The position numbers and the translations under genes are program-made. A model generated the notes under the pieces. It had not been told where the DNA came from. It ran no database searches and saw only the letters and a list, made by a program, of their open reading frames with translations. Positions 11,086 through 64,000 of a DNA stretch of 64,000 nt are shown here, one piece after another (position 1 is the first letter of the stretch; every line of letters starts with the position of its first letter). The DNA is from an uncultured bacterium (GTDB taxonomy: Bacteria > Hydrothermota > Hydrothermia > LBFQ01), in contig CAYYQD010000002.1 in the NCBI GenBank assembly GCA_964473735.1, forward strand, positions 4,966-68,965, written 5' to 3'.

Positions 11086-11099
11086 CCTTTACCTCCTTT

Positions 11100-12921: not shown

Positions 12922-12996
12922 GGTAGGATGTTAAGGGAGAATGGAAGGGTTTAGAATCCTCTGGTAAGTTAAGGCTTCCTTTTACACATTTACCCG

Positions 12997-34744: not shown

Positions 34745-36579
34745 AGAGGTACGTGTTTGCCGTCTTATCTCTGTTTCCTGTCTCCCTCATGGGGGCGTGG
34801 GTTGATATAACGGATATGGCCGAGGGTCCGAGGGCCTCGGTCGGAAAGAAGGAGTACCTGCAGCTCTCCCCTGCTACGCCCGTCCGCCTGAAGGTCAAGA
34901 GGAGCACGAACGTCAGGTGGAGGGTCCGCGCCGACAAGAGCGGTAGGCTCTGGTACATAAACCGCAGGAACGGAAAACGCAGGGACTTCCACTTCAGGGC
35001 TGGTAAGAGCGAGATAAGGATGCACCTCTCGGCCGGAATATACGACTTCTACGCCTCACCGGAGGCCGTAGCACGTGTCTATAGGTACGTGCGGCGTCGC
35101 TGGAAACCCGTTCAGCCGGAGGGGGGAGGGTACCCCGTCGTACTGTTGGTGGGTGAGAACCGCTACACCTACTACAGAACGGATAGGGGGGTAGTGGTGA
35201 AGGTCAAGGGACCGACCACGCTCCACCTGTTCTTCCGGGCCTTCATGAGAGGCGGAGGTAAGGTGAGAGCTAAGATCAAGGTCTATGAGGGGAAGAGGCT
35301 TATAAAGTCCGCCATAAAGACGCTTAGACCTTCCCGACGGGCGATATTCTTTACGGGGAAGGACAGCATAAAGGCTTCCGTACCCCTGAAACTGAGCCTG
35401 AAGGTATCCAAGGGACTCCATCGCTACAGGGTCGTGGTATCTGGCGTTGAGGGTGCGGTCAAGCCCTACGTGGATAAGGGGAAACGCAAGCGGAAAAGGG
35501 GAAGTCTATTCCACTTCACGGAGATGGGGAGGGTTGAATACGGCCCCATGTTGGCCTCTTTAAGCGCCTCTTACAGTGGAAAGCGCTACAGGAGTAAGAG
35601 ACACCGCAGGAGAAGGCTCCGCAGGAGGAGACACTTCAAACACCACTACGTGCGGGTAGTACCCTCCTTCGCGTACTTATCCTCTGACAACGTCTATCAC
35701 TACAGCCAACCCCAGATTGACACCTTCTACAGCGGTCTAAAGCCCTACAGGTACCCCGGAGTTGAGGGTATAGGGGACGGTATCTGGAGGGCGAGGCTGT
35801 CCTTCACTTACCTCTACCGCTGGAGGCGTAAGATTTCCTTAGGTCCCACCCTGTACTACGCCCTCTACAGGTACCTTCAGAACCAGCAGCTTAACCGCAG
35901 TCTGTACGGTATTTCTCTCGTGGGCAGGTTTTACGGACTGCGGGCGAGGGTATCCTACCTGAACATGCCCTTTTACGGTGTTAGACCGACTTACACAGGC
36001 GTACCTAAGACGTACGAACTTCTATCCTTCGCCTACAGCAGGACGGAGGTCTCCCTATCCTACACCTTGAAGCCCATTACCGTAAGGGGGGTCTACGGGT
36101 TCGGTAGGTACGACTTCAACCCCACCTTTGACCTGTACGACGCCCGGTTTCGCAGGGCAGGGGGTGGTATCACCTTCAGGTACTCCGTCTTCTCCTTAAA
36201 GGGAGACGTCCTCTTCGGTAAAGTGGAGGCTACGAACCTACCCGCCGGAGTGCCCAAGGATTGGTCCCACGACTACACCACCTTCAAGGTCGCTCTTCTC
36301 CTGTCCCTTCCCTACGTTTCCCCTTACATCTCCTACAGGCATACGGTAAGAAACTACACGACCACGGACGTAGCCGACTCCCACTACGGCAGAGAGGATA
36401 AAGAGAGTGACCTCGTTCTGGGTGTCTCTGGAGAGCTCCCGTACGTCAGGCCCTTCGTATCCTACAGGGTCAGGAGCCGTTCCACCACCTCTCCCACCCC
36501 TATCGTGGATGTCTTCAAGGACTACAGGGAGAACGTATTTACGGCCGGCATAAGGGTACCCCTGAAGTTCAGGTTCTGA
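34741..36579 (+). CDS. Secreted, highly basic putative outer-membrane beta-barrel protein co-transcribed with the pgs genes
   Basis: The signal peptide is MKRYVFAVLSLFPVSLMGA. The polybasic tracts are GKRKRKRG and KRYRSKRHRRRRLRRRRHFKHH. The C-terminal half has alternating aromatic/hydrophobic beta-strand patterns ending ...VPLKFRF. It overlaps the upstream gene by ATGA. Confidence 0.45.
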   Translation: MKRYVFAVLSLFPVSLMGAWVDITDMAEGPRASVGKKEYLQLSPATPVRLKVKRSTNVRWRVRADKSGRLWYINRRNGKRRDFHFRAGKSEIRMHLSAGIYDFYASPEAVARVYRYVRRRWKPVQPEGGGYPVVLLVGENRYTYYRTDRGVVVKVKGPTTLHLFFRAFMRGGGKVRAKIKVYEGKRLIKSAIKTLRPSRRAIFFTGKDSIKASVPLKLSLKVSKGLHRYRVVVSGVEGAVKPYVDKGKRKRKRGSLFHFTEMGRVEYGPMLASLSASYSGKRYRSKRHRRRRLRRRRHFKHHYVRVVPSFAYLSSDNVYHYSQPQIDTFYSGLKPYRYPGVEGIGDGIWRARLSFTYLYRWRRKISLGPTLYYALYRYLQNQQLNRSLYGISLVGRFYGLRARVSYLNMPFYGVRPTYTGVPKTYELLSFAYSRTEVSLSYTLKPITVRGVYGFGRYDFNPTFDLYDARFRRAGGGITFRYSVFSLKGDVLFGKVEATNLPAGVPKDWSHDYTTFKVALLLSLPYVSPYISYRHTVRNYTTTDVADSHYGREDKESDLVLGVSGELPYVRPFVSYRVRSRSTTSPTPIVDVFKDYRENVFTAGIRVPLKFRF

Positions 36580-43467: not shown

Positions 43468-43902
43468 ATGTTGCGTTTTCTATTGTCCGTTTTAGTGCTG
43501 GGGGTACTCCTTCCCGGATGTAGGGTGGAGGATACGAACGGAGGGGGAGGGAACGGCAACCTCGTGAGTGTGGACCTCTTCCACGGCTACTACGACGTTG
43601 GACCCGGATACTACTTCCGTCTGAAGTTCTCCGCCCGCTCCGGAGATACCCTGCACTTTGAGGCCCGGGTAAGGAACGGGGACGGGGACATAAGCTACGC
43701 CTTCTGGACGGACAGCGTAAATTTCGTCAGGTGGCTGAACGACGACTCCACGGCCGTCCTCCACGGCTACGTTGAGGGGGTGAGCACCGTTTCCTACTCC
43801 CCCGCCCTTGACTCCAGCGTCTATTACGTTGTGCTCGGCAACTCCTCCGCCATTACCACCAAGCGCTTCTGGATAAGGGCCTACCTGAGGGGGTTGAGAT
43901 GA
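43468..43902 (+). CDS. Hypothetical lipoprotein
   Basis: Lipobox LLPGCR; 144 aa. Confidence 0.4.
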   Translation: MLRFLLSVLVLGVLLPGCRVEDTNGGGGNGNLVSVDLFHGYYDVGPGYYFRLKFSARSGDTLHFEARVRNGDGDISYAFWTDSVNFVRWLNDDSTAVLHGYVEGVSTVSYSPALDSSVYYVVLGNSSAITTKRFWIRAYLRGLR

Positions 43903-45356
43903 TAACGCTCCTATCCTTCTTCAGGCCGGAGATACCCGCAGAGGTTCCCCGATGGAGGGTCGGAGAGGTCTTACGGGAGATAAAGAGAGAGAGTCGGCCC
44001 TCTCCGTACGGATGGTACCTTAAAGTGAAGGACTCCCCGTCCTACTGGAAGGCCTGGGACGGAAAGAGGATAGTCGTCAGGCTTAAGGACGGTCATACGC
44101 CCGAGGAGGTGTTAGGTGGCCTGCCCTACAGAAAGGCTAAGAATACGCCATCCTACGTCATAACCCTCCCCGATGGCAAACGCGACCTATCCTACGTTAA
44201 AGCCCTCCTGAACTCTTTGAACTCACACCCCGGTGTCCTCTTCGCCGAACCGATGCTCCTGTACAGAACCGACTACTGGCCGAACGACCCCATGCTGGGA
44301 ACCTACCTGTGGGGGATGTGGGCCATATACGCCGACCGGGCCTGGGACATAACCCGTGGGAACTCCGCGGTTAAGGTGTGCGTCGTGGATGAGGGTATGG
44401 ATTACAACCACGAGGACATCAGCGGGAACTACGCCGGAGGGTACGACTTCGTTGAACTGGACTCGGACCCCTACCCCGCCGACGCCTCGGAGATGCACGG
44501 CACCCACGTGGCCGGTACCATAGCCGCCGTTATGAACAACGGCAAGGGGGTAGTGGGTGTGGCACAGGTGGGAATACTCTCCTGTAGGGCCATGGCGGGT
44601 GGGTCCGGAACGAGCGAGGACATAGCCTCCTGCATAAGGTGGTGTGTCTCACAGGGGGCCCGGGTTATAAACATGAGCCTGGGGGCCTCCGCCCCCGCCT
44701 CCGAGATACAGGACGCCGTCATATACGCTACGGACAGTACCGACAGGGGTACAGTTGTGGTGGCCGCCTCCGGAAACGACGGCATAAACGGGGTGCTTTA
44801 CCCCGCTGCCTACCCGCAGGTAATAGCGGTCGGGGCCATAGATACCTTAGGTCAGAGGGCCTACTTCAGCAACTACGGTCCGGAGCTGGAGCTGGTGGCT
44901 CCCGGGAACCTGATAGCCTCCACCGTACCCTTCAACAACGCCTACGCCTACGCCGACGGTACCTCCATGGCCACCCCCCACGTCTCCGGGGTCGCGGCCC
45001 TGATACTCTCCCGGAACCCCAACCTCTCCGCCGACACCGTGAGGGCCATACTGGACGCCACGGCCATAGACATGGGGGAGTACGGTAAGGATTACTTCTA
45101 CGGGTACGGCCTCGTGAACGCCTACCTGGCCCTCCTCGCCACCCCTACACCCACCGCCGGTCCTACCCTTACCGGGGCCGTTGATGTGGAGGTCTCCGGA
45201 CGCACGGTCAGGGCCAGCACGGATCGCGGCTCCGTATCCCTGTACTCATCGGGCGGCAGGCTTCTGGCCCGTGGTAGGTCCATCGTCTTGGAAGTCGGCT
45301 CCGGAGTGTATTTCCTGACCGCTAACGGGAAGACCTACAGCCTAATCGTGAGGTGA
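43899..45356 (+). CDS. Subtilisin-like serine peptidase (S8) with a T9SS-type C-terminal domain
   Basis: The catalytic triad motifs are VVDEGMD, HGTHVAGT and GTSMATPHVSG. The C-terminal ~70 aa are paralogous to the CTD of the 24617-25603 protein (VSLYSSGGRLLARGR...GVYFLTANGKTYSLIVR). Confidence 0.8.
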   Translation: MITLLSFFRPEIPAEVPRWRVGEVLREIKRESRPSPYGWYLKVKDSPSYWKAWDGKRIVVRLKDGHTPEEVLGGLPYRKAKNTPSYVITLPDGKRDLSYVKALLNSLNSHPGVLFAEPMLLYRTDYWPNDPMLGTYLWGMWAIYADRAWDITRGNSAVKVCVVDEGMDYNHEDISGNYAGGYDFVELDSDPYPADASEMHGTHVAGTIAAVMNNGKGVVGVAQVGILSCRAMAGGSGTSEDIASCIRWCVSQGARVINMSLGASAPASEIQDAVIYATDSTDRGTVVVAASGNDGINGVLYPAAYPQVIAVGAIDTLGQRAYFSNYGPELELVAPGNLIASTVPFNNAYAYADGTSMATPHVSGVAALILSRNPNLSADTVRAILDATAIDMGEYGKDYFYGYGLVNAYLALLATPTPTAGPTLTGAVDVEVSGRTVRASTDRGSVSLYSSGGRLLARGRSIVLEVGSGVYFLTANGKTYSLIVR

Positions 45357-45891: not shown

Positions 45892-46752
45892 ATGAACAGA
45901 TTCACAGTGGTGGTGGTGGCCATAGTATCGCTGGCCGCCGGAGTATTCGTAGGTTCCCTCGGGCTCATGTACCTGACCCGGGGTAAAGGCTCAAAGGAGG
46001 AGGTCGCGCGGACGACCGGTAAGACCAAGATAGACACCCTTGAGGTTATCGGGGACGTAGTGATAGCGAAGGAGGACCTGAACGCGGCCTCCAAGATCCC
46101 CGGACTTACCCCGGAGCAGGACCTGAAGAAGGCCCTTGAGAAGATAGCCCTATTCTACAACGCTGCCAAGGAGAAGGGGATAACCTCTGACCCTCAGGCC
46201 AAACGCATGGCCTACTGGGCGGACAAGAGCGTGTACGCCGACCTGTTTTATCAGAAGTACGTCGTTCCCCTCATAAACGTGGATACGAACGCCGTGAACG
46301 ACTACATAAACGCCCACAAGGACGAGTTCTCCAAGGAGATAGCCATGCTCATGGTGGTCTATAAGGACCCAGCTCTGACGGATACCCTCCGGAAGCTACT
46401 CAAGGACGGCAGCTACGCCGCTAACCTCATGCTGGAGGAGTTCGCCAAGAAGGGGAAGATAGGGGTACAACCCTCCCCTTACCAGAACTTGGGGCTCGGG
46501 AGGTTCGCCATGAACGAGGAGGAGTTCAAGACCCTGAAGGAAGCCAGGGTGGGAGATGTCGTGGGCCCGTTTCAGGTGGCTCCGGGTACGTACGCCCTCG
46601 CCAAGGTCGTGGATATACGTCGTACCAACCTGAAGAAGATAGATCCCAACGTGAAGGGCGTGGTGTATCAGTACCTGATTGATCAGCGCAAGAGGGAGGT
46701 TGAGGACTCCCTGATTAAGGTGTTTGAAAGGAAGTACGCGGGAGGTAAGTGA
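45892..46752 (+). CDS. SurA N-terminal-domain-like periplasmic chaperone (membrane-anchored)
   Basis: It has an N-terminal TM helix and a helical chaperone-like domain. It is adjacent to and co-oriented with the SurA-like PPIase. Confidence 0.45.
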   Translation: MNRFTVVVVAIVSLAAGVFVGSLGLMYLTRGKGSKEEVARTTGKTKIDTLEVIGDVVIAKEDLNAASKIPGLTPEQDLKKALEKIALFYNAAKEKGITSDPQAKRMAYWADKSVYADLFYQKYVVPLINVDTNAVNDYINAHKDEFSKEIAMLMVVYKDPALTDTLRKLLKDGSYAANLMLEEFAKKGKIGVQPSPYQNLGLGRFAMNEEEFKTLKEARVGDVVGPFQVAPGTYALAKVVDIRRTNLKKIDPNVKGVVYQYLIDQRKREVEDSLIKVFERKYAGGK

Positions 46753-47981
46753 TGCTTTTACTGTTGGCCGTGCAGCTGGATACCCTGGATAGGGTGGCGG
46801 CGGTGGTGGATGACAGGGCCATCTGGATGTCCGACGTGGACGAGAGGGCCTTACTTTACGCTTCCACCTACGGGATACCCCCGGACCAGCTTCCATCCCT
46901 CCGCAGGGAGGTACTCCAGCAGATGGTTAATACCGAGCTCCTGTACCTGAAGATAAGGGAGGACACCTTAATCCACGTGAGCGAGGACGAGGTGGAGAGG
47001 GCAATAGACATGCAGATACAACAGATAAAGGGGAACCTAAGCGATGAGGAGTTTGAGAGGAAGCTCAAGGAGGCCGGTTTTACCCTTGAGGCCTACCGAC
47101 GGTACCTGAGGGACGACATCCGCAAGACCCTCTACATTCAGAAGTACGTAGAGATGAGGATAAAACCCCGGGTGAAGGTAAGCGACGAGGAGGTGGATAA
47201 GGCCTACGAAAAGCTGGCCGACTCCCTGGCCACGCCCCCGGAGTTCAAACTCGCCGTCATAACCTTGATGGTAAAACCTTCGGCCTCCGCAGAGCAGGAG
47301 TACTACAACAGGGCAAAGAACATCTACAGACAGCTCAAGAGGGGAGCCGGATGGGAGGAGATGGTTCAGAAGTACTCCGACGACAGGGAGAGCGCTCGCA
47401 TAGGAGGGGACTTAGGCATAGTACCCAAGAACGCCCTGCCACCCAACTTCGTTAAGGAGATAGAGAAGACCCCCGAGGGTGGCTATACCAAACCTTTGAG
47501 GGGGCCTCAGGGGTACCACATCTTCTACGTTAAGGGGAAGAGGGAGGACGCCTTCCTATTGGCACACATCTTAGTTAAGGTAAGCCCCTCCGAGGCGGAC
47601 GTCAAACGTGTGATGAGAAAGGCTAAGGGTATAGTGAAGAAGATCAAAGCCGGGTACTCCTTCGCGAAGCTGGCTCGGAGGTACTCCGACGACCCAGTGT
47701 CCAGACAGAACGGTGGGGAGATCGGATGGGTGAGCGCCCGCGCCCTACCACCGGACATAGTTGAGAAGCTCAAGGGGGCCAAACCCGGCGAGGTGGTGGG
47801 TCCCATACCCACGCCCGATGGCACCATGATAAACATCTTCAAGGTGTTAGACGTGCATGAGGGCCAGAGACCCACGAGAGCACAGGTTAAACAGATACTC
47901 CTGCAGCGCAAGATAGAGGAGGAGCTGAACAAGCTGGTGGAAGAGGCTAAAAAGGAGTACTACGTGAAGGTCTATATCTGA
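46749..47981 (+). CDS. surA: SurA-like peptidyl-prolyl cis-trans isomerase with two parvulin domains
   Basis: Two PpiC-type blocks are present (ARIGGDLGIVPKNALPPNF and SRQNGGEIGWVSARALPPDIV). The start overlaps the upstream gene by ATGA. Confidence 0.65.
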   Translation: MMLLLLAVQLDTLDRVAAVVDDRAIWMSDVDERALLYASTYGIPPDQLPSLRREVLQQMVNTELLYLKIREDTLIHVSEDEVERAIDMQIQQIKGNLSDEEFERKLKEAGFTLEAYRRYLRDDIRKTLYIQKYVEMRIKPRVKVSDEEVDKAYEKLADSLATPPEFKLAVITLMVKPSASAEQEYYNRAKNIYRQLKRGAGWEEMVQKYSDDRESARIGGDLGIVPKNALPPNFVKEIEKTPEGGYTKPLRGPQGYHIFYVKGKREDAFLLAHILVKVSPSEADVKRVMRKAKGIVKKIKAGYSFAKLARRYSDDPVSRQNGGEIGWVSARALPPDIVEKLKGAKPGEVVGPIPTPDGTMINIFKVLDVHEGQRPTRAQVKQILLQRKIEEELNKLVEEAKKEYYVKVYI

Positions 47982-52491: not shown

Positions 52492-54687
52492 GTGATCTTC
52501 CTGCTCTTAGGGAGCATAACGGTTGAGGGGCAGGTGGTGGATAGCCTTGAGGGGGGAATACCCTACGCCGTGGTGCGCGTCCCGAAGCTGAAAAAGGGTA
52601 CCTACGCCGACGATAGGGGTTTCTTCAAGCTTGTGTTGCCGGACGGAAGGTGGAAGGTAATCGTGTCAGCCGTAGGGAGGGAGCCGGATACCTTTTCAGT
52701 CTATGGGAGGGACACTACCCTCTTCGTAAAGGTAGTCCTGCGTACCTCACCGATAAAGGCTAAGGAGATCGTCATAACCGCCAAGAGGGAGGAGTTCCGG
52801 AAGGGGACAGTAGAGCCCTTTAAGTTCAAGGCGGAGGTGATAAGGGAGAGGCCCAACTTCTTGACGTCGGACGTCCTTAGAGCCATACAGGACGTACCCG
52901 GCGTGGTGATGGCGGCCGACTTCTCCTCCAAGTTCTCCGTGAGGGGCGGGGGGCCTCAGGAGAACATCGTCCTATTTGACGACGTACCGGTGTTCAACCC
53001 CTACCACATGGCCGGTCTGTTCTCCGTGTTTATAAGCGATGCCCTATCGGGTTTTACCTTTTACCGCTCCAACTTCCCGGCCCGGTACGGTGGTGTCCTA
53101 TCCTCCATCTTAGACGTTCAGGTGGCGGAGCCGGATAGCGCGTACGGTAACCTCTCCGTTAGTCTGTTGGCCACGTCCCTGTTCCAGACTTTTAAAAGGG
53201 GTAAGTTCGGCGGTCTCGTTGCCCTCCGTCGCTCCTACTTTGATATAACGGCCGGATGGATGGGGTACGATTTTCCCTACCACTTCTACGACGGTATAGC
53301 GAAGTTTTATTACGACGTCAGGCCGTCCTGGAGGCTCTCCCTGTCCTTGCTTCAGGGGGACGACGTCCTTGACCTGTACTTCCGGACGGCCCACCTCTAC
53401 GCCTCGTGGGGAAACACCGTACTGTCCCTCAGGAGTAGGGCCATCCTGGGGGGAAAATGGGTCTCTCTGAGCACTCTGGGTCTCACCCTCTTCAGGGATA
53501 GGCTATCCTTTGGCTTTAAGGATCAGACCATCGTCTCATTAACCGCCCCCATGAATCTGGGTACCTTCCGGACCTCCTTAAGCAGCGTGGATGAGAGCAG
53601 GGAGATAAGGTTAGGACTCTCCGTAGAGCCCGGATGGGGCGGGATAAATCAGGACTTCTTCGGCATGAAGTACGAGGATAAGGGCAACACCGTCCTCTCC
53701 TCCATCTACGGGGAGTACCTGCTGAAGAGGGGTATATACAACCTCTCGGTAGGCGGACGCCTCAACCTCTTCTATACGTGGTTCCCGGAGCCCATGAGCA
53801 AGTACAACGTTGCCTATCTCAACCCGGAGCCGCGTATAACCTTCCGCTACTTCCTCACACCCGACGTCGCCATCAAGGGTGGCTGGGGAGTATTTCACCA
53901 GTACCACATCGGTTTGAGTATGGGAGGGGGACAGCTGGGTGAGGTCCTATCCTCGTTCTATTACTGGACGTCCGTATTTAGAGGCTGGCAGCCCATGAGG
54001 TCCTTCCACTACTCCCTCGGGCTGACGGGTATAACCGCGTGGGGGGACTGGGAGGTTGAGGCCTTCTACAAGGACTACCCTTACGTCCTGCTGGAGAACC
54101 CTACTCCGGATATAAACGACATCTACGGTACCATCTTCCGGGAGGGGAAGGCGTGGGCCTACGGCTTTGACGGATACGTCCGGAAGGACGTCGGTAAGGT
54201 GCGCCTCCTCCTCTCCTACTCCTTCCTGATAGCCCGGATGAAGTTCGGAGATACCATCCATCCCTCCCCATGGGACAGGAGACACGCCGTGGTTTTCACC
54301 CTATCTCACCCCCTGCCTTGGGGTGCGGTAGGAGGGCTCCGCTTCACCTACCAGAGCGGTATGCCCTACACCGGGGTCATAGCCCGGTACGACGTATACT
54401 CCATGTACGACCCGGGCCTCGGGATGCCCATGAGGGTAGGGACGAGGGAGATATACAGCGTACCCTATACCCTCCGATACCCACCCTACCACCGTCTGGA
54501 CCTGTACGTGCGTAGAAACTTCAGTATAAAACGGTTCAGGGGGTACCTTTCCCTATCCGTAATAAACGTCTATAACCGGAGGAACGTGTGGTTCTACATG
54601 TACGACTACTCCAAAGATCCTCCGATAAGGACGGCATTCTACCAGCTGCCTATCTTTCCCTCTATAGAGGTGGGTGTGAGGTGGTGA
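52492..54687 (+). CDS. TonB-dependent receptor (SusC/RagA-like, with N-terminal CarboxypepD_reg domain)
   Basis: The N-terminal beta-sandwich is GQVVDSLEGGIPYAVVRVPK...DRGFFKL. The plug region is FDDVPVFNPYH, and the C-terminal barrel ends ...IEVGVRW. Confidence 0.65.
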   Translation: MIFLLLGSITVEGQVVDSLEGGIPYAVVRVPKLKKGTYADDRGFFKLVLPDGRWKVIVSAVGREPDTFSVYGRDTTLFVKVVLRTSPIKAKEIVITAKREEFRKGTVEPFKFKAEVIRERPNFLTSDVLRAIQDVPGVVMAADFSSKFSVRGGGPQENIVLFDDVPVFNPYHMAGLFSVFISDALSGFTFYRSNFPARYGGVLSSILDVQVAEPDSAYGNLSVSLLATSLFQTFKRGKFGGLVALRRSYFDITAGWMGYDFPYHFYDGIAKFYYDVRPSWRLSLSLLQGDDVLDLYFRTAHLYASWGNTVLSLRSRAILGGKWVSLSTLGLTLFRDRLSFGFKDQTIVSLTAPMNLGTFRTSLSSVDESREIRLGLSVEPGWGGINQDFFGMKYEDKGNTVLSSIYGEYLLKRGIYNLSVGGRLNLFYTWFPEPMSKYNVAYLNPEPRITFRYFLTPDVAIKGGWGVFHQYHIGLSMGGGQLGEVLSSFYYWTSVFRGWQPMRSFHYSLGLTGITAWGDWEVEAFYKDYPYVLLENPTPDINDIYGTIFREGKAWAYGFDGYVRKDVGKVRLLLSYSFLIARMKFGDTIHPSPWDRRHAVVFTLSHPLPWGAVGGLRFTYQSGMPYTGVIARYDVYSMYDPGLGMPMRVGTREIYSVPYTLRYPPYHRLDLYVRRNFSIKRFRGYLSLSVINVYNRRNVWFYMYDYSKDPPIRTAFYQLPIFPSIEVGVRW

Positions 54688-55323: not shown

Positions 55324-57240
55324 CTACCCTTCGGCCGTTTTACCCTCTTCCCCCAAGCTCTCCAGAACCGCGCCACCTATGGCGGCCGCGTTGAAATTCA
55401 CCCTCTCCATGTCGGACAGCAGGTCAAGATATACCTCTCCGGACTGGACGTTGGAGACGTCTATCCGCGTGTAGAACTCCTTTCTCATACGGTCAAGGAG
55501 CGCCTTTACCTCCTTGGCCCTCGCTAATAATTCCTTCGCCCTTTCCGGATCCCACGTGGTTAGCACGACCATAGCGATGGCTAAGGTCCTCATGACCTCC
55601 GAGTGCATCACCTTTATACCGTTCAGCTCATCCTCCGTCAGGCTTATTCCCTCCTTGTACAGCTTCTCAACGTTCCGGACTATGGACTTGGAGATTATGT
55701 CCCCCATGTTCTCAATCTCCTCCATTATCTGGGCTAAGGCCACGACCTTCTTTCCCGTCTCCCCCGTCAGACCGTGGGCCATCACCCTTGAGACGTAGGC
55801 GTTTATCGTCTCCTCTGCCCTATCTATCTCGTCGTCCATACTGGCTATCCTCTCAAAGATCGCCGGGTTCCGGGTCCGCACGGCCTCGTACAGGTCCTGA
55901 AACATCTGCATGGCCACGTTCAGGGCGTCCCCTATGACCTTCTCCATATAGACCAGCAAAAACTCGGGGTCGTCGTATATTATGGCTCTGGACACTCGCT
56001 CCTTTATGGGGGATTCCATCCTCCAGAGAGCCCTCACGTAGGTGAGGGGGACGACTATGGCGGCAAATACGAGGTTGTAGTATATGTGGGATAGGGCGAT
56101 GTTCTTGCTCAGGTCCTCCACCCATATCGGGAGGGATGGGGCCAGATGGACGGTGGGGAGGAGGAGTAAGGAGAGGACGGTACGACCCAGCAGGTTCATG
56201 AGGGCCACCCTCCGGGCCACGGGGGAGAGCTGGGCGGAGGCTAGTACGGCCGTGAAGGCCGTTCCTATGTTGGCGCCGAGGACGACGGCTAAGGCCCCGG
56301 TGAAGGTTATGACCCCGGCGAAGGCCATGGAGAGGGCTATACCTATGGTGAGGGCGGAGGAATGTACCAGAGCGGCGAACACGGCCGAGACCACTAACAT
56401 CAGGAGCACGTTGTTGGATATGTCGTGTATGAAGGTGGTGACGTAAGGGATGGAGGCCATGTCCGCGAAGACGTTCCCCATCTGCCATATACCGAAGAAG
56501 GCCAGTCCGAAGCCGAAGAGGGCCCGTCCGTAGTGTTCGTACACCTGCGTGAATCTCTCAAGGTAATAACCGAGGGCCATCATGACTATGGCGACGTACG
56601 TGAAGCCGAGGGACAGGATACCCACCGTAAAGGTAGTCCCTACCCCAGCGCCGGCGTTCATGGCCATGGCGGAGGCGGGTGTTAAGAAGCCTAAGTCCGT
56701 AAGGGAGACGACCATCACCGTAACGGCGGTTGAGGACTGGAAGCCGAGGGCCGCGATGAGGCCACCGAGGGTAGCCAGCATGGGGCTCCGTGAGAGACGG
56801 GTTAGGAGGGTACGGGTCCATCCACCTACGGCACGCATTATCCCGGTTGAACCCCGGTTAAGTCCGAACATGAACAGTACGAAACCTCCAAGGAGCTCAA
56901 GGACCTTGACTATCCAGTAGCTGGATTTAAGTACTCTCCCGGTAAAGGTCAGAAGCGTGTCCGTCGTAAAGGCCGTTACGCGCACCGTTGTGGGTTCGCG
57001 CGGCGTAGGTGGAGTGTATATGGCAACGCTTTCAGGGCCAACTACGGTTCTGTAAAGGTCAAGCGTGTCCCCAACGTACAGGAAGGTGACTTCGCATCCG
57101 GGCAGGCTCTTCACCCTTAAAGGTTTGAACTTCTGTCCGACCGTTAATACCTGATTGTCTCCCGACAGGTCAAGGTTGTAGAGGGTGTCGTACAACCTGT
57201 ATAACGGACAGAAACCTCCTATAAACCAGAGCAAGTTCAT
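55324..57240 (-). CDS. Na/Pi-cotransporter family protein with a C-terminal PhoU-like domain
   Basis: The polytopic core has duplicated Na/Pi_cotrans repeats (GANIGT...). The cytoplasmic C-terminus is helical and PhoU-like, and the length is 638 aa. Confidence 0.7.
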   Translation of the reverse strand: MNLLWFIGGFCPLYRLYDTLYNLDLSGDNQVLTVGQKFKPLRVKSLPGCEVTFLYVGDTLDLYRTVVGPESVAIYTPPTPREPTTVRVTAFTTDTLLTFTGRVLKSSYWIVKVLELLGGFVLFMFGLNRGSTGIMRAVGGWTRTLLTRLSRSPMLATLGGLIAALGFQSSTAVTVMVVSLTDLGFLTPASAMAMNAGAGVGTTFTVGILSLGFTYVAIVMMALGYYLERFTQVYEHYGRALFGFGLAFFGIWQMGNVFADMASIPYVTTFIHDISNNVLLMLVVSAVFAALVHSSALTIGIALSMAFAGVITFTGALAVVLGANIGTAFTAVLASAQLSPVARRVALMNLLGRTVLSLLLLPTVHLAPSLPIWVEDLSKNIALSHIYYNLVFAAIVVPLTYVRALWRMESPIKERVSRAIIYDDPEFLLVYMEKVIGDALNVAMQMFQDLYEAVRTRNPAIFERIASMDDEIDRAEETINAYVSRVMAHGLTGETGKKVVALAQIMEEIENMGDIISKSIVRNVEKLYKEGISLTEDELNGIKVMHSEVMRTLAIAMVVLTTWDPERAKELLARAKEVKALLDRMRKEFYTRIDVSNVQSGEVYLDLLSDMERVNFNAAAIGGAVLESLGEEGKTAEG

Positions 57241-57639: not shown

Positions 57640-57993
57640 TCAGTCCAGCCAGATGAGTATGATACCGCAGTTGGGACAGGCCACGACCTCGTCGTCCCTT
57701 GGGATGATGGAGGAGGGGAGGGCGGCGAAGCAGTTAGTGCACATGTGATTCACAACCCGGGTGATACCGCGACCGTACCTCCGCTTGAGCATCTCGTACT
57801 TCTGGTAAGTGACGGGGTCAAACTTCAGGAGGTCCCGGGCCAGCTCGTTTCTCTTCCTCTCCAGCTCCTTTATCTTCTCCTCGTCTATCTTAAGACCGGT
57901 CTTGGCCTCGTACTCCGGGTCCCTTACCTGCTGGAGGAGTAGATCCAGGTCCTGAAGGAGGTACAGCTTCCGCAGGTACTCGCGCTTACTCAT
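57640..57993 (-). CDS. C4-type zinc-ribbon domain protein (COG1579-like)
   Basis: A coiled-coil N-terminus is followed by CTNC...CPNCG. Confidence 0.5.
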   Translation of the reverse strand: MSKREYLRKLYLLQDLDLLLQQVRDPEYEAKTGLKIDEEKIKELERKRNELARDLLKFDPVTYQKYEMLKRRYGRGITRVVNHMCTNCFAALPSSIIPRDDEVVACPNCGIILIWLD

Positions 57994-58441
57994 GGTCGTG
58001 CTCTAAGATGTAATCTACTAGCTCCTTGGGAGAGGAGAAGTCGGTCCTTATCTCACCCTCGTGGGCGATGGAGCGGGATACCCGGGCTATGGCCCCCAGA
58101 GCCGTCAGGTACTTCATGGACGGGTCGTTAGGTGTGGCTATCAGCATGAAGAAGAGGTGTACGGGCTTCCCATCAAGGGAATCAAAATCCACACCTTCCT
58201 TGGATACCCCTACGACGAGGGTTATGTTATCAACGACTATGCTGCGGGAGTGGGGGATGGCTATCCCCTTACCTATACCCGTGGAACCGAGTACCTCCCT
58301 CTGCATCAGGGACTTGAACAGGATCTCCTTCTTGTCCTCGGAGAGGTCAAGGACATCCACGAGTTCCCGTATGGCCTCCTCCTTCGTCCTGGCCTTCATA
58401 TCAAGGATGACTCTGTCTTCCCTTAAGAGTTCCTTAAGCAT
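57986..58441 (-). CDS. PTS EIIA(Ntr)/fructose-type IIA domain protein (PtsN-like)
   Basis: A motif like GIAIPHSRS around the active-site His and a pattern typical of EIIA-Ntr; 151 aa. Confidence 0.6.
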   Translation of the reverse strand: MLKELLREDRVILDMKARTKEEAIRELVDVLDLSEDKKEILFKSLMQREVLGSTGIGKGIAIPHSRSIVVDNITLVVGVSKEGVDFDSLDGKPVHLFFMLIATPNDPSMKYLTALGAIARVSRSIAHEGEIRTDFSSPKELVDYILEHDHE

Positions 58442-58444
58442 GTT

Positions 58445-59146
58445 CTACCTCCTTTTTTCCCTTAGTCTGACAAGCAGAGGATCGGGGACCCCTACCTCGG
58501 CGAAGGCCTCCGCTCTCTGCAGGCACGTGGGACACTTTCCACAGGGCTCCCCGTTCACCGGAGAGTAGCACGACCACGTCCATTCGTAGGGTACCCCCAT
58601 CTTCAGGCCCATCCTGATTATGTCGGGTTTCTTTAGACCTAAGAGGGGGGTATGGACCCTCACGCGAAGCTTCCTGTCAAAGGACAGGGATGAGCCGGCG
58701 TTCAGTAGGGCCTCAAGGGAGGACGCCCACTCCGGCCTCGTATCCGGATAGTTGGGGACGTCCGAGGCGTGTATCCCTATCACCAGATCCGTTATGCCGT
58801 AGACCTCCATGTAGGCGCCGGCGACGACCCCGAAGATGGAGTTCCTCATGGGAACGTAGGTCGCTATGGTACCCTCCGGTGGGTAGGGCCCCTCGGGGAC
58901 GGGGACCCTATCGTCCGTCAGGGCGGACCCTCCCACCCTCTTCAGGACGTCCAACTCCACGATTAAGTGCCCCTTAACCCCGGCGAGGTCTGCCAGCTTC
59001 TTAGCGTACTCCAGCTCCACGGAGTGTCTCTGACCGTAAAGGAAGGTCAGCGCCCACACCTCACTGAACCTCTCCTTCGCCCACCACAAAGCGGTCGCCG
59101 AATCTATCCCGCCGGAGAGCAGGACTATACACTTATCGTTTTCCAT
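58445..59146 (-). CDS. queC: 7-cyano-7-deazaguanine synthase QueC
   Basis: The PP-loop is LLSGGIDS. The C-terminal zinc Cys residues are CYSPVNGEPCGKCPTC. Confidence 0.85.
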   Translation of the reverse strand: MENDKCIVLLSGGIDSATALWWAKERFSEVWALTFLYGQRHSVELEYAKKLADLAGVKGHLIVELDVLKRVGGSALTDDRVPVPEGPYPPEGTIATYVPMRNSIFGVVAGAYMEVYGITDLVIGIHASDVPNYPDTRPEWASSLEALLNAGSSLSFDRKLRVRVHTPLLGLKKPDIIRMGLKMGVPYEWTWSCYSPVNGEPCGKCPTCLQRAEAFAEVGVPDPLLVRLREKRR

Positions 59147-59252
59147 GTCGTGGAAACTTGATATTATAGGGTGGTAATTTATCGTTTGAAGCGCACGCTC
59201 CGGCCGAAAGAGGACTCTGCAGTGGGGTCGGCGACCGTAAAATAGCCGTCCG

Positions 59253-61547
59253 ATGTTCCTTCTGTTTTCCTACGTGGCCCTGAATTCCGCCTCTCTTGAA
59301 GATCTGCGGAAGGTCTTCCCCGGGTCTCTGGCGGATAGTGTGTATAAGTACAGGCAGAGGTTCGGCGGTTTCCGAAACTTCTACCAGCTCCTTGATGTCC
59401 CGGGCATGACGCCAGCCGTATTCAAACGGGTGAAGGACAGCCTCATCCTGTACGCTCCGGAGAACCAGCGCAACGGTTCCGCCCTTGGGAGTCGCATAAA
59501 CACCGTCATATCGCTGAGGGCTTCGGAGGAGGCCCCTTCGGACCTGAGCCGGGCCTACTGGCTCCTACTGGGAGGAAACCCCGTGGATATAAACTCCGCC
59601 ACCGTGCTGGAGCTGACGAACCTACCCGGGGTGTCCCTAAAGGACGCCGTAAAGGTCGTACAGTGGCGGAAATACACCCGCATAAAGTCCAGAAGGGACC
59701 TGAGATGGACCCCGGGCCTCACCCTCTACGGATACAGGAACCTGCGAAGGTACGTCACCTACCGCCACACCTACCGCCCCTTCAGGGCCTTCGTATTCCT
59801 CCACGGCTACGTTGATAACTACGCCTACGACCCCTCCTCCTTCTTCGCCTCCTCCATAAACGACCTCATGGACACCTCTGGAACGAGCAGGAACCTTCAG
59901 CTCATGAGGGAGGCCGGATGGAGCGACGGGGCCATAACCTCCTTCTTAAACCGCCTCAGGAAGGAGGCTTACGACATCAGCACCCTGCCCCGGCCTAAGA
60001 GCACCGTACGTGCCATGTTTAAGCTTTGGGACCTCGTGGATGTTGGCTTCTACCACTACGAGGGCTACACCACGTACAACAAGGGGTACGTTGGCATAAC
60101 CAAGCCGTACGTTAAGGTCATAGCCGGAGACTACCGCTTCTCCTTCGGGAACGGCCTGATATTCACCTCCTCCGAGAACCTCTCCGACAGGGTGTACTGG
60201 AACACGGTGGGTCTCATGCCAGACATACTCTACGGGGACGCCTTTAAGTTGAGGGGGATAGGGGTGTGGGGGAACGTCCGGGGGCTCTCGCCCTTTCTCA
60301 TATACTCCAGAGATAAAAAGGACGCAGTGGTGGATACGGCGGGCAGGCCTCTCTTCTACTACAGCTCCGAGTTCGTACCCTCCATATACAGGGACAGGAT
60401 AGACGAGGAGATCGTGGGAGGTGGTCTGAACTACATGGGGGACAACGGCTTCGGCCTCGGTTTCATGCTCTTTCAGATAAAGTACGGGGAGCCGTTCAGC
60501 AACGACTGGGGAAGCGTGGCGGTGCCCTTCTACTCCAGCACCTTCAACGGAGGATGGCAGTACGACCCGTCCTTCCGAATAGATACGGGCAAGATACACC
60601 GGTTTGCGGGCCTGACTTACAGCGCCGTAATAGGGGACATCGTGATACGCGGGGACCTCGCGACCAACCTCCGGCATCCGCGCCCCTCGGCCTTAGTGGT
60701 GGCCCGGTACGTGGGAGAGACCCGTAGCCTTGACTTCGTCTATAGGAACTACGACCCTACCTACTGGAACCCCTACGCTCGCCCCTTCAAGGAGGACAAC
60801 CGTTTTGAGAGGACCGACTTCCGCTACTCTTATCGCCTGCTTGACCCCTTAGCCACCAACGTCGCCGATCTGCCGGTACCGAAACCGGAGGAGGGGTACT
60901 TCTTCCAGATACGGGACCGCCTGTTTCAGGATATACTCCTGCCCCGGGTGTACCTTGACTTCTGGAAGGACAGGACGGACGGCATGTGGAACCGGAGGCT
61001 CCACGCCGAGGTAGAGTGGAGGGTGGTATGGGCGTTGCGCCTGCGCGTGTGGAGGAGGTGGCTGGAGCGTACGGACATGAGGTACGGCCGTCCCTTTAAG
61101 AGTAAGTCAGTTGAGACCGCCTTCCGCACCTTCGTAATAACCGACGCCCACTCCGTCCTTGGCATGGAGGTCAGATACTCCCAGTACAAGTCGGACAACA
61201 CCGGCGTACCTCCGGGTAGGGGCACCTTCTTCAGCTTCTTCTACAGCACGGACCTTCTCCGGGGCCTTAGGGTATATACCGGCTCCACGGTTTGGACGAG
61301 CAACGGGTACTCCCTGTGGGTCTTTGAGGACGACGGGATAGACTTCCTGTACAACCGTGGCGTGAAGACCTACGTCTCCGTCAGGAAGAGCATCTTCTCC
61401 AACGCGTACCTCCGCCTGAAGATACGCTACAAGAAACAGTACAACGACGGGAACTCCCTGATATCCGCCAGCGGGGATCCGATCAACGTCGGTCTGGGTA
61501 AGTACGAGTACTTTACGACCTATGCGGACTTCGCCATTACCTTTTAG
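59253..61547 (+). CDS. Secreted protein with two ComEA-like helix-hairpin-helix motifs and a large beta-rich C-terminal domain ending in Phe
   Basis: The signal-like N-terminus is MFLLFSYVALNSA. The HhH motifs are LNSASLEDLRKVFPGSLADSVYKY and DINSATVLELTNLPGVSLKDAVKVVQWR. The C-terminus ...YADFAITF is OMP-like. Confidence 0.5.
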   Translation: MFLLFSYVALNSASLEDLRKVFPGSLADSVYKYRQRFGGFRNFYQLLDVPGMTPAVFKRVKDSLILYAPENQRNGSALGSRINTVISLRASEEAPSDLSRAYWLLLGGNPVDINSATVLELTNLPGVSLKDAVKVVQWRKYTRIKSRRDLRWTPGLTLYGYRNLRRYVTYRHTYRPFRAFVFLHGYVDNYAYDPSSFFASSINDLMDTSGTSRNLQLMREAGWSDGAITSFLNRLRKEAYDISTLPRPKSTVRAMFKLWDLVDVGFYHYEGYTTYNKGYVGITKPYVKVIAGDYRFSFGNGLIFTSSENLSDRVYWNTVGLMPDILYGDAFKLRGIGVWGNVRGLSPFLIYSRDKKDAVVDTAGRPLFYYSSEFVPSIYRDRIDEEIVGGGLNYMGDNGFGLGFMLFQIKYGEPFSNDWGSVAVPFYSSTFNGGWQYDPSFRIDTGKIHRFAGLTYSAVIGDIVIRGDLATNLRHPRPSALVVARYVGETRSLDFVYRNYDPTYWNPYARPFKEDNRFERTDFRYSYRLLDPLATNVADLPVPKPEEGYFFQIRDRLFQDILLPRVYLDFWKDRTDGMWNRRLHAEVEWRVVWALRLRVWRRWLERTDMRYGRPFKSKSVETAFRTFVITDAHSVLGMEVRYSQYKSDNTGVPPGRGTFFSFFYSTDLLRGLRVYTGSTVWTSNGYSLWVFEDDGIDFLYNRGVKTYVSVRKSIFSNAYLRLKIRYKKQYNDGNSLISASGDPINVGLGKYEYFTTYADFAITF

Positions 61548-62082
61548 CCTCCTGCTCCTCTCCCTGATATCGGTGTCCTGTGCCACGCTCTCCAGACGTG
61601 GGGGATCTAAGGGGGCCCCGGGTACCCACCTCCTCCTCCCTCCGGACGTCCTTACGGAGATGGAGATAAACCGGGTGCGCGCCCTCTACGACAACCTTCC
61701 CGACTTCGTGGCCTACGGTACCTACACCATGACCTTCATGTTCAACAGGAGTAAGGGGACGTTCAGGATGTACAAACTCTCCGACACCATATACGTGAAG
61801 CTGGACGATAACCGGACCTTCGTAGTTCCGTGGGATAGCCTGATAAACACGCAGGTGCAAAACGGCAGGATGGATCTACGGGCGGACACCACGGTTATAA
61901 CGTGGGACGGGAACGAGGTGGTCCTGGTGGATGACCGGCTAACCGCCTACCGTGGCAGGGGGATAATCCTCCGTATGGAGGACTACGACTACTATCCCAT
62001 ACCCCATCCGAGGAGGTTGGTACTGAGGTCCATGGGGGTCAGCGTAGTGCTGGTAGTGGATAGCATAGTACCCCTCCCATGA
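61522..62082 (+). CDS. Hypothetical lipoprotein
   Basis: The lipobox is LISVSCA. The 186-aa ORF overlaps the upstream gene end by 26 nt. Confidence 0.4.
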   Translation: MRTSPLPFSLLLLSLISVSCATLSRRGGSKGAPGTHLLLPPDVLTEMEINRVRALYDNLPDFVAYGTYTMTFMFNRSKGTFRMYKLSDTIYVKLDDNRTFVVPWDSLINTQVQNGRMDLRADTTVITWDGNEVVLVDDRLTAYRGRGIILRMEDYDYYPIPHPRRLVLRSMGVSVVLVVDSIVPLP

Positions 62083-62120
62083 ACGGGCCCGTCCCTTCCC
62101 GGGTATAATCTGCTCCCTTT

Positions 62121-63002
62121 ATGATTACTTTCCTCCTCCTTGGGGATAGCGTTCTCCTCTTTCCCGTGAAAGAGGTGGTGCGTGAAGGTAAGGCTTTGGT
62201 GGTGAATGGGAAGGTGAGGGCCGAGTCCCTACCGGACTTTCTGGATAGCATCAGGGTAAGGAGGGGCCGAACCTACATCTACCCTAACCATCGCTACGCG
62301 TACGGCGAAATTCGGGGGGACACCTTGGCCCTGTTCTCCAAGGGGGTGTTCGCCGTGGTGGTGGATCCGGGACACGGGGGGACGGACTTCGGAGCGGTAG
62401 GGGTGTCGGGAGTGAAGGAGAAGGACATAACTCTGGCCGTGGGCCTCAAACTGGCCCGTCTCCTGAAAGATGAGGGGTACCGGGTCTTCCTTACGAGGAG
62501 CGAGGACCGGTTCGTCTCCCTCTTTGAGCGTGGGGAGCTGGCTAACTCCGTAAGCGCTAAGTACAAGATATACGTCAGCCTCCATTGCAACTTCATGTCC
62601 GACCCCCGGGCGGAGGGCGTGGAGACCTACATCCTGACCCTTGACAAGGTGACGGACAGGAGGGCAGCCGCTGTGGTGGAGAACATGCCTTACGCCCACT
62701 TAGGCTCCCTGAAGGGGATAATCGGGGACATGCTCCAGAACCTCTTCCTTGAGGACTCAAGGGAGTTAGCCTTAGCCCTTCACCTGCGCCTGAAGAACTA
62801 CACGAAGGACAGGGGGGTCAGACAGGCTAACTTCTACGTTCTGCGTCAGATATACTTCCCCTCCGTACTCTTGGAGCTGGGTTATATCTCCAACCCGGAG
62901 GAGGCCCAAAAACTTCAGGATACGAGCTATCAGGACGCTCTGGTGAGGGATATAACGCGTGGTATAGACGACTTTTTTATGGAAAAGTTCGCAGAAAAAT
63001 GA
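62121..63002 (+). CDS. N-acetylmuramoyl-L-alanine amidase (Amidase_3 family)
   Basis: Zinc ligands lie in VVVDPGHGGTD...SLHCNF, with the downstream Glu in AEGVETY. The Amidase_3 core is ~180 aa. Confidence 0.75.
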   Translation: MITFLLLGDSVLLFPVKEVVREGKALVVNGKVRAESLPDFLDSIRVRRGRTYIYPNHRYAYGEIRGDTLALFSKGVFAVVVDPGHGGTDFGAVGVSGVKEKDITLAVGLKLARLLKDEGYRVFLTRSEDRFVSLFERGELANSVSAKYKIYVSLHCNFMSDPRAEGVETYILTLDKVTDRRAAAVVENMPYAHLGSLKGIIGDMLQNLFLEDSRELALALHLRLKNYTKDRGVRQANFYVLRQIYFPSVLLELGYISNPEEAQKLQDTSYQDALVRDITRGIDDFFMEKFAEK

Positions 63003-64000
63003 TAATCTTACTTTTATCCACTTTCGCCGGGTGCAACAGGGGGATACACGTTCCCTTCGCGCGGGCTCTATCCCTCAGAAACCGGGCGAGACTGAAGAGG
63101 TACTACGATAGGATAAAGGGGGCGGGGTTTGACTGCGTCGTCATAGACTTCAAGACGATAGAGGGGTACGTAGGTGTTCCCTTCTCCCACCCTGTGATCT
63201 CCCGCACCCGCGCCTTCAAGGGAGACCTGCGGAAGGTGGCCACCTACTTCAGGGATAGGGGAATTTACGTCGTGGGTAGGGTGACCCTCTTTAAGGATAG
63301 GCTCCTGCGGAGAGCTCTCGGTAAGGGGCACGGTGAGTTCGTCCCACCGGGGGACAGCGTCGTGCTATCCTACAACCGGGCCGTGGTGGAGGCCACCCTT
63401 CCGTACGTGGATGAGATACAGCTGGACTACGTCAGATGGCCGGACTTTCCCGTAGGCCTTCCCACGAAGAGGAAGGTCGCCCTCCTCCTCTCCTCCGTGA
63501 GGTACATCACAGCCTCCGTTCCGGACTCCGTACCTCTCTCCGCCGACATATTCGGCAGGATACCTCTGCACCCTAAAGGGAGCAACGACATGATAGCCCA
63601 GAGTATATACGACTTTTACGGTATCTTTGACATCCTCTCTCCCATGGCCTATCCCTCCCACTACTGGAGGGAGCTCCTGAACCCCTATCAGGCCCCCTAC
63701 CACACTTTACTGGATATGCTCTCCTTTGGGGCAGATTCCTCCAGAATAAGGGTGTGGCTTCAGGCGTTCAGGTACAGGGTGCCACGGAGTAAAGGGCTCC
63801 GATGGTACATAAGGAGGCAGATGGACGCCGTCTCCGACTTAGGTGGCGTGGGCTACATGTTCTGGTTGCCCGACGTTCCGGTACTCACCGAGGTCCACAA
63901 GACTTATTTATCCTCCCTTCCCAAATCGGACTCGCTACCCGTATACGGCGTGGCCCGACCGGTAGACGGCAAGTACGTGGATACGTTAGTAAGGAAGTAC
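62999..64000 (+). CDS. Lipoprotein, putative glycoside-hydrolase-like TIM-barrel (GHL10/DUF4015-like); 3'-truncated by the window edge and absent from the ORF track
   Basis: Hand translation from ATG 62999 overlaps the amidase stop (ATGA). It gives MIILLLSTFAGCNRG...DCVVIDFK...IYVVGRVTLFKDRLL...IQLDYVRWPDF... with no stop codon before position 64000 (>330 aa). Codon usage is AGG/ATA-rich like the rest of the window. Confidence 0.45.
   Translation, partial: MIILLLSTFAGCNRGIHVPFARALSLRNRARLKRYYDRIKGAGFDCVVIDFKTIEGYVGVPFSHPVISRTRAFKGDLRKVATYFRDRGIYVVGRVTLFKDRLLRRALGKGHGEFVPPGDSVVLSYNRAVVEATLPYVDEIQLDYVRWPDFPVGLPTKRKVALLLSSVRYITASVPDSVPLSADIFGRIPLHPKGSNDMIAQSIYDFYGIFDILSPMAYPSHYWRELLNPYQAPYHTLLDMLSFGADSSRIRVWLQAFRYRVPRSKGLRWYIRRQMDAVSDLGGVGYMFWLPDVPVLTEVHKTYLSSLPKSDSLPVYGVARPVDGKYVDTLVRKY

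Follow-up and report, generated by a model that had tools for sequence, protein, structure and literature searches.

The stretch analysed here, 64,000 nucleotides from an uncultured bacterium (contig CAYYQD010000002.1; referred to below as the window), carries a gene for a protein of 764 amino acids (aa) in which two helix-hairpin-helix (HhH) modules of the ComEA type are fused to a predicted outer-membrane beta-barrel of about 24 strands. Relatives of this HhH-barrel protein form an uncharacterised family of outer-membrane proteins that is conserved across the Fibrobacterota-Chlorobiota-Bacteroidota (FCB) group. In the best-supported reading, to which we attach a probability of roughly 45%, the protein serves extracellular nucleic acid as a conduit or platform in the outer membrane, carries a tethered periplasmic HhH holdfast and functions, across the family, mainly in scavenging. 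The fusion and the gene cluster in which it is conserved in other phyla appear to be undescribed and built from known parts; neither a paper on the HhH-barrel family nor the five-gene outer-membrane cluster was found in the literature searched.

The gene corresponds to an open reading frame (ORF) that had already been described in an earlier reading made from the nucleotide sequence alone (the sequence-only reading), where it was interpreted as a fusion of two ComEA-like HhH units with a beta-rich domain of outer-membrane type. Structure modelling and an HhH profile search have now been performed, and they yielded neither a soluble fold for the C-terminal domain nor sub-threshold scores for the HhH units. 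Pfam HHH_3 (PF12836) is matched in two stretches with 72.3 bits (E 3.5e-20) at a gathering score of 27, and the predicted structure contains the (HhH)2 fold, the tandem matching ComEA well. The closest sequence match in the PDB is the double-HhH region of human EEPD1 (9yi2, E 8e-5), with an alignment that spans unit 1, runs across the linker and includes unit 2; the ComEA entries 2duy, 8dss and 8dfk come next (E 0.02-0.04). EEPD1 shares the tandem arrangement but is a eukaryotic, intracellular protein that is fused to an EEP nuclease instead of a barrel. ComEA itself (HHH_3; TIGR00426/TIGR01259; 8dss, 8dfk, 2duy) is the periplasmic or membrane-anchored DNA receptor of competence systems. It contains one module and an inner-membrane anchor or oligomerisation domain, whereas the HhH-barrel protein has two modules in tandem and an outer-membrane barrel of about 590 aa. 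Unit 2 is the better conserved of the two, with 12 positions at least 90% conserved, and also the more basic one (net charge +8 here, family median +2). Glu93 in the linker between the units is nearly invariant.

For the C-terminal part, the Pfam/NCBIfam scan returned no model covering residues 170-764. AlphaFold2 (AF2), run on an alignment of 18 sequences with 23-93% identity, gave a model with a mean predicted local distance difference test score (pLDDT) of 74.4 and a predicted template modelling score of 0.74, the five models ranging from 69 to 74. Helices extend up to residue 164 and are followed by a strand (177-188), a helical insert (197-242) and 23 long strands up to residue 763. The insert between strands 1 and 2 (residues 189-248) is largely specific to the WOR-3 clade and is gapped or unaligned in most other members. 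When strand 1 is taken as running outward, outer-side loops of 60, 34, 26, 36, 46, 17 and 17 aa alternate strictly with inner turns of 2-5 aa. The terminal residue is Phe in 78 of the 81 full-length members, Trp in one and Leu in two, and this residue together with the loop/turn pattern constitutes the standard marks of an outer-membrane protein inserted by the machinery for beta-barrel assembly (BAM). The model predicts a closed antiparallel transmembrane beta-barrel, whose closure, pore size and placement relative to the HhH tandem we infer from it. Because the 24 strands are joined by long loops on one side and by turns of 2-5 residues on the other, the N-terminal tandem is predicted to fall on the periplasmic side and not to be surface-exposed. 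The assignment of the beta-rich domain to an outer-membrane barrel, proposed in the sequence-only reading from its pattern and C-terminal aromatic residue, is borne out by this model, and a soluble propeller or sandwich fold was rejected on the basis of the model and the fold comparison.

BtuB, porins, AlgE and LptD were among the structural matches of the barrel in the fold comparison. FimD/PapC ushers, MtrB, TonB-dependent transporters and LptD resemble it at the general barrel level only (template modelling (TM) score 0.3-0.45). Their strand numbers are 24, 26, 22 and 26, respectively. These large outer-membrane barrels carry other N-terminal domains than the HhH-barrel protein, and the partner of LptD has an LptE fold while a LolB fold is predicted for the lipoprotein partner described below. 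Membership in the LptD, usher, TonB-dependent transporter or secretin families was rejected, as the family domains are absent: Plug/TonB_dep_Rec, Usher, OstA/LptD and Secretin gave no Pfam/NCBIfam match at E values up to 1, and the same scans detected neither POTRA nor Bac_surface_Ag domains. The conservation peak of the family, YRxYDxxFxNPYxRxF (residues 496-512), lies outside the HhH units. It opens the stretch YRNYDPTYWNPYARPFKEDNRFERTDF, the top-scoring 20-residue conservation window, in which 81 sequences share R498, N506, P507, Y508, R510 and F512 without exception; residues 513-541 that follow the peak have low pLDDT. Invariant charged residues of the barrel are R313, D324, E385, R498, R510, E546, R554, D569 and R582.

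When 1.84 billion cluster representatives were searched exhaustively with HMMER, 176 sequences were returned at E<=1e-30, and among the best 150 of these about 75 have the same architecture at full length (755-944 aa). A word-indexed search had retrieved 17 relatives, all with HHH_3 as the sole Pfam domain, and no further members were gained when the family alignment was used as a profile in a search of this type. Scanning a single genome for each GTDB species with the pattern NPYxR[PAG]F[KS][EN][DH], derived from the conserved loop motif, led to 102 loci, whose taxon labels are the record titles of metagenome-assembled genomes (MAGs). The closest loci (54-89% identity) are from WOR-3 and Ca. 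Caldipriscus, the lineage of the window, and a second WOR-3 clade follows at about 30%. Near full-length relatives with 23-28% identity come from Coatesbacteria, Cloacimonadota, Krumholzibacteriota, Fibrobacteraceae, Gemmatimonadota, Latescibacterota and Eisenbacteria. The phyletic survey suggested in the sequence-only reading has thus been carried out and places the family in WOR-3, Cloacimonadota, Krumholzibacteriota, Gemmatimonadota, Latescibacterota and others, with no member from Bacteroidota among the best 80 of the 102 loci. The family is small, its members stem from MAGs only, and their database names are at the domain level (HhH). An outer membrane is present in the host lineage: the closest loci are from WOR-3/Caldipriscus MAGs, the window encodes a TonB-receptor-like protein as well as lipoproteins, and the cultured WOR-3 strain sy37 is diderm, possessing an outer as well as an inner membrane (PMC12285271).

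An in-frame TAA at 59238 makes ATG 59253 the earliest possible start of the HhH-barrel gene, and an upstream-extended ORF with a classical signal peptide was thereby ruled out. The N-terminus encoded from this ATG, MFLLFSYVA, consists of about nine residues without a basic n-region immediately ahead of HhH unit 1 and is too short and uncharged for a textbook signal peptide. Judged from sequence comparison, export via this putative minimal signal is nevertheless credible, because its hydrophobicity is kept in the clade, because members of other phyla have classical signals and because minimal N-termini occur elsewhere in the window. In 13 sequences of the Caldipriscus clade the segment is hydrophobic yet variable (MLFLFSYIS, MSFLIAYIS, MFSLLALVP and others), and in all non-Caldipriscus members a classical signal peptide occupies the same position and ends a few residues before the conserved D-L-N that opens unit 1. 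Minimal N-termini are also found on other evidently exported proteins of the window, e.g., the TonB-receptor-like protein at 52492 (MIFLLLGSITVEG), a subtilase (43899, MITLLSFF), the amidase (62121, MITFLLLGDS) and the DUF4015 lipoprotein (62999, MIILLLSTFAGC). The N-terminus that had been called signal-like is thus atypically short. More generally, Met followed by 7-12 hydrophobic residues and no basic n-region is seen on many exported proteins of the window (MIFLLLGSITVEG, MITLLSFF, MMLLLLAVQ, MITFLLLGDS, MIILLLSTFAGC, MTWLLLLSLSTGEG and MIFVVISVSIF; genes at 52492-54687, 43899-45356, 46749-47981, 62121-63002, 62999-64000, 30352-30954 and 27650-29731(-)), and such minimal signal peptides look like a lineage-wide habit.

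Gene context was assessed by calling and clustering ORFs in 83 related loci. Outside the Caldipriscus clade, the HhH-barrel gene resides in a strongly conserved same-strand cluster (Table 1), in which the gaps flanking it are typically 3-30 nt. The five-gene arrangement occurs in Krumholzibacteriota, Gemmatimonadota, Latescibacterota, Fibrobacteraceae and Cloacimonadota (e.g., loci L004 and L026 and about 50 others, roughly at positions 4500-13500); in Cloacimonadota only the nucleotidase and the BamG-like barrel remain beside the HhH-barrel. The PorV/BamG-like partners carry an N-terminal ...GMGG...NPA.L motif, and they match PorV_fam (58.6 bits) and BamG (70.5 bits) significantly, yet under the curated cut-offs of 90 and 250, respectively. 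In Bacteroidota, FadL-family barrels of the PorV/BamG type anchor surface proteins or lipoproteins (PMC12611786). The most informative hint at function comes from the recurrent nucleotidase, as it points to a nucleotide or nucleic-acid substrate and to consumption over preservation, and the cluster as a whole points to the handling of extracellular DNA (eDNA) or nucleotides over classical competence.

These observations are brought together in the conduit-or-platform reading as follows. Of its elements, the gene with its domain architecture and barrel fold, the distribution of the family and its conserved neighbours are shown, while membrane topology, binding of DNA, transit of DNA through the pore and the role in the cell are inferred. 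A signal peptide, minimal in the lineage of the window, would direct export, and the mature protein would open with two ComEA-type (HhH)2 modules in the periplasm, while the barrel would be inserted by BAM via its C-terminal Phe. The wide barrel could act as a gated conduit or as a platform for extracellular nucleic acid, and the HhH tandem would bind the polymer from the periplasm, working like soluble ComEA as a holdfast or ratchet. In most phyla, two FadL/PorV-type barrels, an LTD-repeat surface protein and an UshA-type 5'-nucleotidase would be co-produced with the protein, and because of these partners, capture and consumption of eDNA or nucleotides is a likelier purpose than transformation. 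In the WOR-3/Caldipriscus clade the cluster would have shrunk to the barrel and a translationally coupled lipoprotein of LolB fold that may dock on the barrel or plug it. The proposal of an outer-membrane-tethered DNA receptor in the sequence-only reading survives as far as the HhH-barrel architecture is concerned, and a link to nucleic acids gains indirect backing from the nucleotidase/LTD cluster. With the tandem predicted to face the periplasm, such a receptor, in itself plausible, would hold DNA beneath a pore and not bind eDNA at the cell surface.

Table 1. Features of the HhH-barrel locus in the window and composition of the conserved cluster in other phyla
Feature	Coordinates	Strand	Remarks
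HhH-barrel gene	59253..61547	+	ORF; full-length homologues with 23-93% identity in at least 83 loci
Divergent intergenic region queC (-)/HhH-barrel gene	59147..59252	.	Promoter-like sites on both strands
Minimal hydrophobic N-terminus MFLLFSYVA, putative very short signal peptide	59253..59279	+	Hydrophobicity conserved in clade
HhH unit 1, residues 8-66, ComEA-type (HhH)2	59274..59450	+	
Helical linker, residues 67-107	59451..59573	+	AF2 helices 78-89 and 97-108, partly low pLDDT
HhH unit 2, residues 108-166	59574..59750	+	Second HHH_3 stretch; aligns to Thermus ComEA-related 2duy
Predicted beta-barrel domain, ~24 strands, residues 177-763	59781..61541	+	
Helical insert between strands 1 and 2, residues 189-248	59817..59996	+	AF2 helices 197-242
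Most conserved family stretch YRNYDPTYWNPYARPFKEDNRFERTDF, residues 496-523	60738..60821	+	Opens 46-residue loop, long-loop side
C-terminal strand end ...YADFAITF, beta-signal-like	61521..61544	+	Terminal F common
Overlapping lipoprotein D34, 186 aa, predicted LolA/LolB-like fold	61522..62082	+	Sole conserved neighbour in Caldipriscus clade
N-acetylmuramoyl-L-alanine amidase	62121..63002	+	Pfam Amidase_3, 173 bits; absent from 83 related loci
DUF4015 putative glycosyl hydrolase lipoprotein	62999..64000	+	MIILLLSTFAGC...; Pfam DUF4015, 113 bits; runs off window end
Cluster position 1, LTD-repeat protein			750-1460 aa; 36 loci
Cluster position 2, PorV/PorQ-like barrel			~296 aa; 44 loci
Cluster position 3, HhH-barrel			~850 aa; all loci
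Cluster position 4, BamG/PorV-like barrel			~445 aa; 55 loci
Cluster position 5, UshA-type 5'-nucleotidase			~565 aa; 50 loci
Cluster position 6 (often), AAA_2 protein			~420 aa; 25 loci

The PorV/PorQ-like partners that flank the HhH-barrel gene also raise the question of protein export. The barrel could be an usher- or translocon-like pore through which the LTD protein and the nucleotidase are exported to, or displayed on, the cell surface, with the PorV-like proteins as shuttles and the HhH tandem as a periplasmic docking site. At its C-terminus the LTD protein carries a beta-sandwich-like tail, which by eye resembles the sorting domains of the type IX secretion system (T9SS) and FlgD-Ig, and it shows a weak match to the PorU C-terminus (E 0.07); however, no match to Por_Secre_tail or FlgD_ig was obtained past E 0.01. 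The low TM-scores to ushers (0.3-0.45), the absence of an usher plug and of the N- and C-terminal usher domains, the lack of an Usher match in Pfam and the fact that the LTD gene is not adjacent in the clade of the window or in Cloacimonadota make such a secretion or assembly pore quite improbable. PorV/PorQ of T9SS and BamG of the Bacteroidota BAM are FadL-family anchor barrels akin to the cluster partners seen elsewhere, and none was found in the window.

Passage of DNA across the outer membrane is, to our knowledge, understood only for the route via type IV pilus and secretin. In Riemerella anatipestifer, a member of the FCB group, genetics has revealed a route that works without a pilus but depends on an outer-membrane barrel together with an HhH protein: the barrel RA0C_RS04915, the lipoprotein RA0C_RS04920 and the periplasmic, i.e., extracytoplasmic HhH protein RA0C_RS02645 are jointly implicated in DNA uptake (PMC8459023). 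The comparison is one by description and not by sequence, and the Riemerella barrel (with CarboxypepD_reg) and HhH protein are separate polypeptides, whereas the two parts are fused in the HhH-barrel family. A dedicated transformation pore could be imagined on this basis, in which the barrel admits double-stranded DNA (dsDNA) and the fused tandem pulls it toward ComEC, replacing PilQ and ComEA without a pilus. ComEA-type domains, a barrel of predicted usher-like size that would in principle be wide enough for dsDNA, and the fact that transformation of Riemerella requires an outer-membrane barrel plus an HhH protein yet dispenses with the type IV pilus (PMC8459023) are consistent with it. On the other hand, comEC, comF and dprA are not part of the conserved cluster, the partner 5'-nucleotidase destroys rather than preserves incoming nucleotides, competence is unreported for the phyla concerned in the literature searched, and the cultured WOR-3 strain is piliated (PMC12285271), so that we consider a pore for natural transformation improbable. 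A bolder form of the preferred nucleic-acid conduit would be an autonomous device of the FCB group that imports DNA without a pilus, in which one polypeptide provides both the channel and a ComEA-like ratchet, accompanied by the partner genes where DNA is food and by the LolB-fold lipoprotein alone in thermophilic WOR-3; this version we regard as doubtful.

The lipoprotein gene next to the HhH-barrel gene starts within its last 26 nt, and overlaps of 25-61 nt are found in 13 of the 14 clade loci, locus L015 being the exception. The structural assignment of its product is tentative: with an alignment of eight sequences, one of five AF2 models was confident, and the closed barrels OmpW and PagL scored nearly as high as LolA/LolB. 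The LolB/LolA superfamily, which includes the DUF1329 partners of DUF1302 barrels, serves as a comparison at the level of the predicted fold, no LolA, LolB or DUF4292 sequence-family match having been obtained in Pfam/NCBIfam. On the other side, genes for a Zn-ribbon protein (57640-57993, -) and a PTS-EIIA_2-like protein (57986-58441, -) adjoin the HhH-barrel gene, and homologues of this pair lie within about 6 kb of it in other phyla (EIIA-like in 27 loci, Zn-ribbon in 16-22), which shows deep vertical synteny across phyla. ClpB (locus L008, 5347-7872) is encoded directly upstream of the orthologue in the 89%-identical WOR-3 locus, and a shorter AAA_2/ClpB_D2-small protein follows the cluster in 25 loci of other phyla; these ClpB/AAA_2 neighbours may be a remnant of an ancestral neighbourhood.

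Several observations weigh against a nucleic-acid conduit. A core function in the envelope is suggested by the deep synteny with EIIA-like, Zn-ribbon and ClpB-like housekeeping genes. In the clade of the window, nucleotidase, LTD and PorV-like genes do not accompany the HhH-barrel gene, and tblastn and hidden Markov models (HMMs) of the cluster proteins found no LTD, PorV-like, BamG-like, 5'-nucleotidase or AAA_2 gene in the 64-kb window. Domain searches revealed no nuclease domain in the cluster, LTD proteins included. The HhH tandem itself deviates from ComEA: the ComEA-specific NCBIfam models remain under their cut-offs (TIGR00426 repeat region, 45.7 vs 53.1; TIGR01259 comEA, 33.4 vs 152.35), and the canonical G-h-G of ComEA hairpins is missing in all four hairpins (FPGS, VPGMT, LPGVS and TPGLT in the window), being replaced in the family by P-G-[VLM]-[ST] or absent altogether. 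In the family majority the first hairpin of each unit is devoid of Gly, hairpin 1 is three residues shorter than its counterparts in ComEA and EEPD1, unit 1 (median charge -3) and the linker (median -4) are acidic in most members, and unit 2 weakly matches PsbU (E 0.52). The ComEA-type identity put forward in the sequence-only reading thus holds in that HHH_3 is the best family and the fold matches, but does not extend to the ComEA-specific models or to the hairpin signature. Since an acidic unit 1 prevails in the family, DNA binding is plausible rather than demonstrated, and for the predicted binding of DNA or RNA by the tandem we see a chance a little better than even.

The same features could be explained if the protein were a component of envelope architecture or biogenesis, with the HhH tandem as a periplasmic foot that binds protein or cell wall and the barrel as a platform for partners. 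PsbU and GspK, extracytoplasmic HhH proteins that do not bind DNA, provide models for such a foot, and LptDE, BamG-BamH and PorQ-PorZ are plug-and-barrel or anchor complexes to which the arrangement may be likened. Degenerate hairpins, the acidic unit 1, the weak PsbU match, the predicted LolA/LolB fold of the sole partner in the clade and the housekeeping-gene synteny seen in at least 16-27 loci fit this explanation, the many invariant charged barrel residues could contact a plug, and the PorV/BamG-like partners elsewhere belong to barrels that anchor surface lipoproteins in Bacteroidota (PMC12611786). However, HHH_3 is by a clear margin the best family, the tandem fits the ComEA fold well, a 5'-nucleotidase in 50 loci is hard to square with a purely structural role, LptD, OstA, POTRA and Bac_surface_Ag domains are absent, and the LolB-fold call stems from a single confident model out of five. 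An envelope platform of this kind therefore appears possible though rather unlikely.

With the nucleic-acid conduit as the preferred reading, the HhH-barrel family becomes a concrete candidate for eDNA capture or uptake in organisms ranging from thermophilic WOR-3 to Cloacimonadota, Krumholzibacteriota and Gemmatimonadota. Carrier phyla are abundant in sediments, digesters and hot springs. A barrel-based DNA route in the FCB group has been hinted at by Riemerella genetics. Even if the HhH tandem should not bind DNA, the family is of value as a barrel outside Pfam/NCBIfam in an undescribed five-gene cluster.

Downstream of the HhH-barrel gene, the lipoprotein, amidase and DUF4015 genes are tightly spaced on the same strand with no terminator-like sites between them. 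The envelope operon of lipoprotein, amidase and glycosyl hydrolase-like protein that had been noted is thus present as a tight arrangement, but only the lipoprotein is conserved in the 83 loci and the remainder is specific to the window: the DUF4015 lipoprotein, like the amidase, is absent from related loci, and orthologues with 89% identity are flanked by ClpB upstream and by SmpB downstream instead of amidase/DUF4015. Intrinsic-terminator-like sites were not found on either strand in 58900-64000 (0 vs 3.7 expected from shuffles). All four promoter-like matches of this region cluster in the queC/HhH-barrel intergenic region (sigma-70-like, 59124-59190; 1.6 expected). An Rfam scan upstream of the HhH-barrel gene (e.g., for a preQ1 riboswitch of the divergent queC) gave no credible family.

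Further genes of the window encode envelope proteins or candidates for such. An outer-membrane protein of 731 aa (52492-54687, +), in which CarboxypepD_reg is accompanied by a weak match to Plug, lies 4.5 kb upstream of the HhH-barrel gene and shares its domain type with the Riemerella transformation barrel RA0C_RS04915, to which it is likened by domain only. A protein of 612 aa (34741-36579, +) has a signal-like start, an outer-membrane-like end (...LKFRF) and no Pfam match, and another without Pfam match, of 439 aa (26279-27598, -), ends in ...SFAWKLE. The 738-aa product of 38692-40908 (-) has a C-terminal Peptidase_S49 domain (SppA-like); its N-terminal part of about 490 aa, which has no Pfam match, opens with ...SVNNPAGLGY, recalling the PorV/FadL motif, and is not matched by the HMMs of the PorV-like partners. 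A Na/Pi cotransporter-PhoU fusion of 638 aa (55324-57240, -), 2 kb upstream of the HhH-barrel gene, is perhaps a coincidental neighbour. Within the HhH-barrel gene itself, long antisense ORFs are present at 59946-60677, 60926-61225 and 61107-61586 (all -). They were rejected as genes (e.g., 59946-60677), as they recur in the closest relatives only; shadowing of the sense frame in a genome of 57% G+C is their best explanation.

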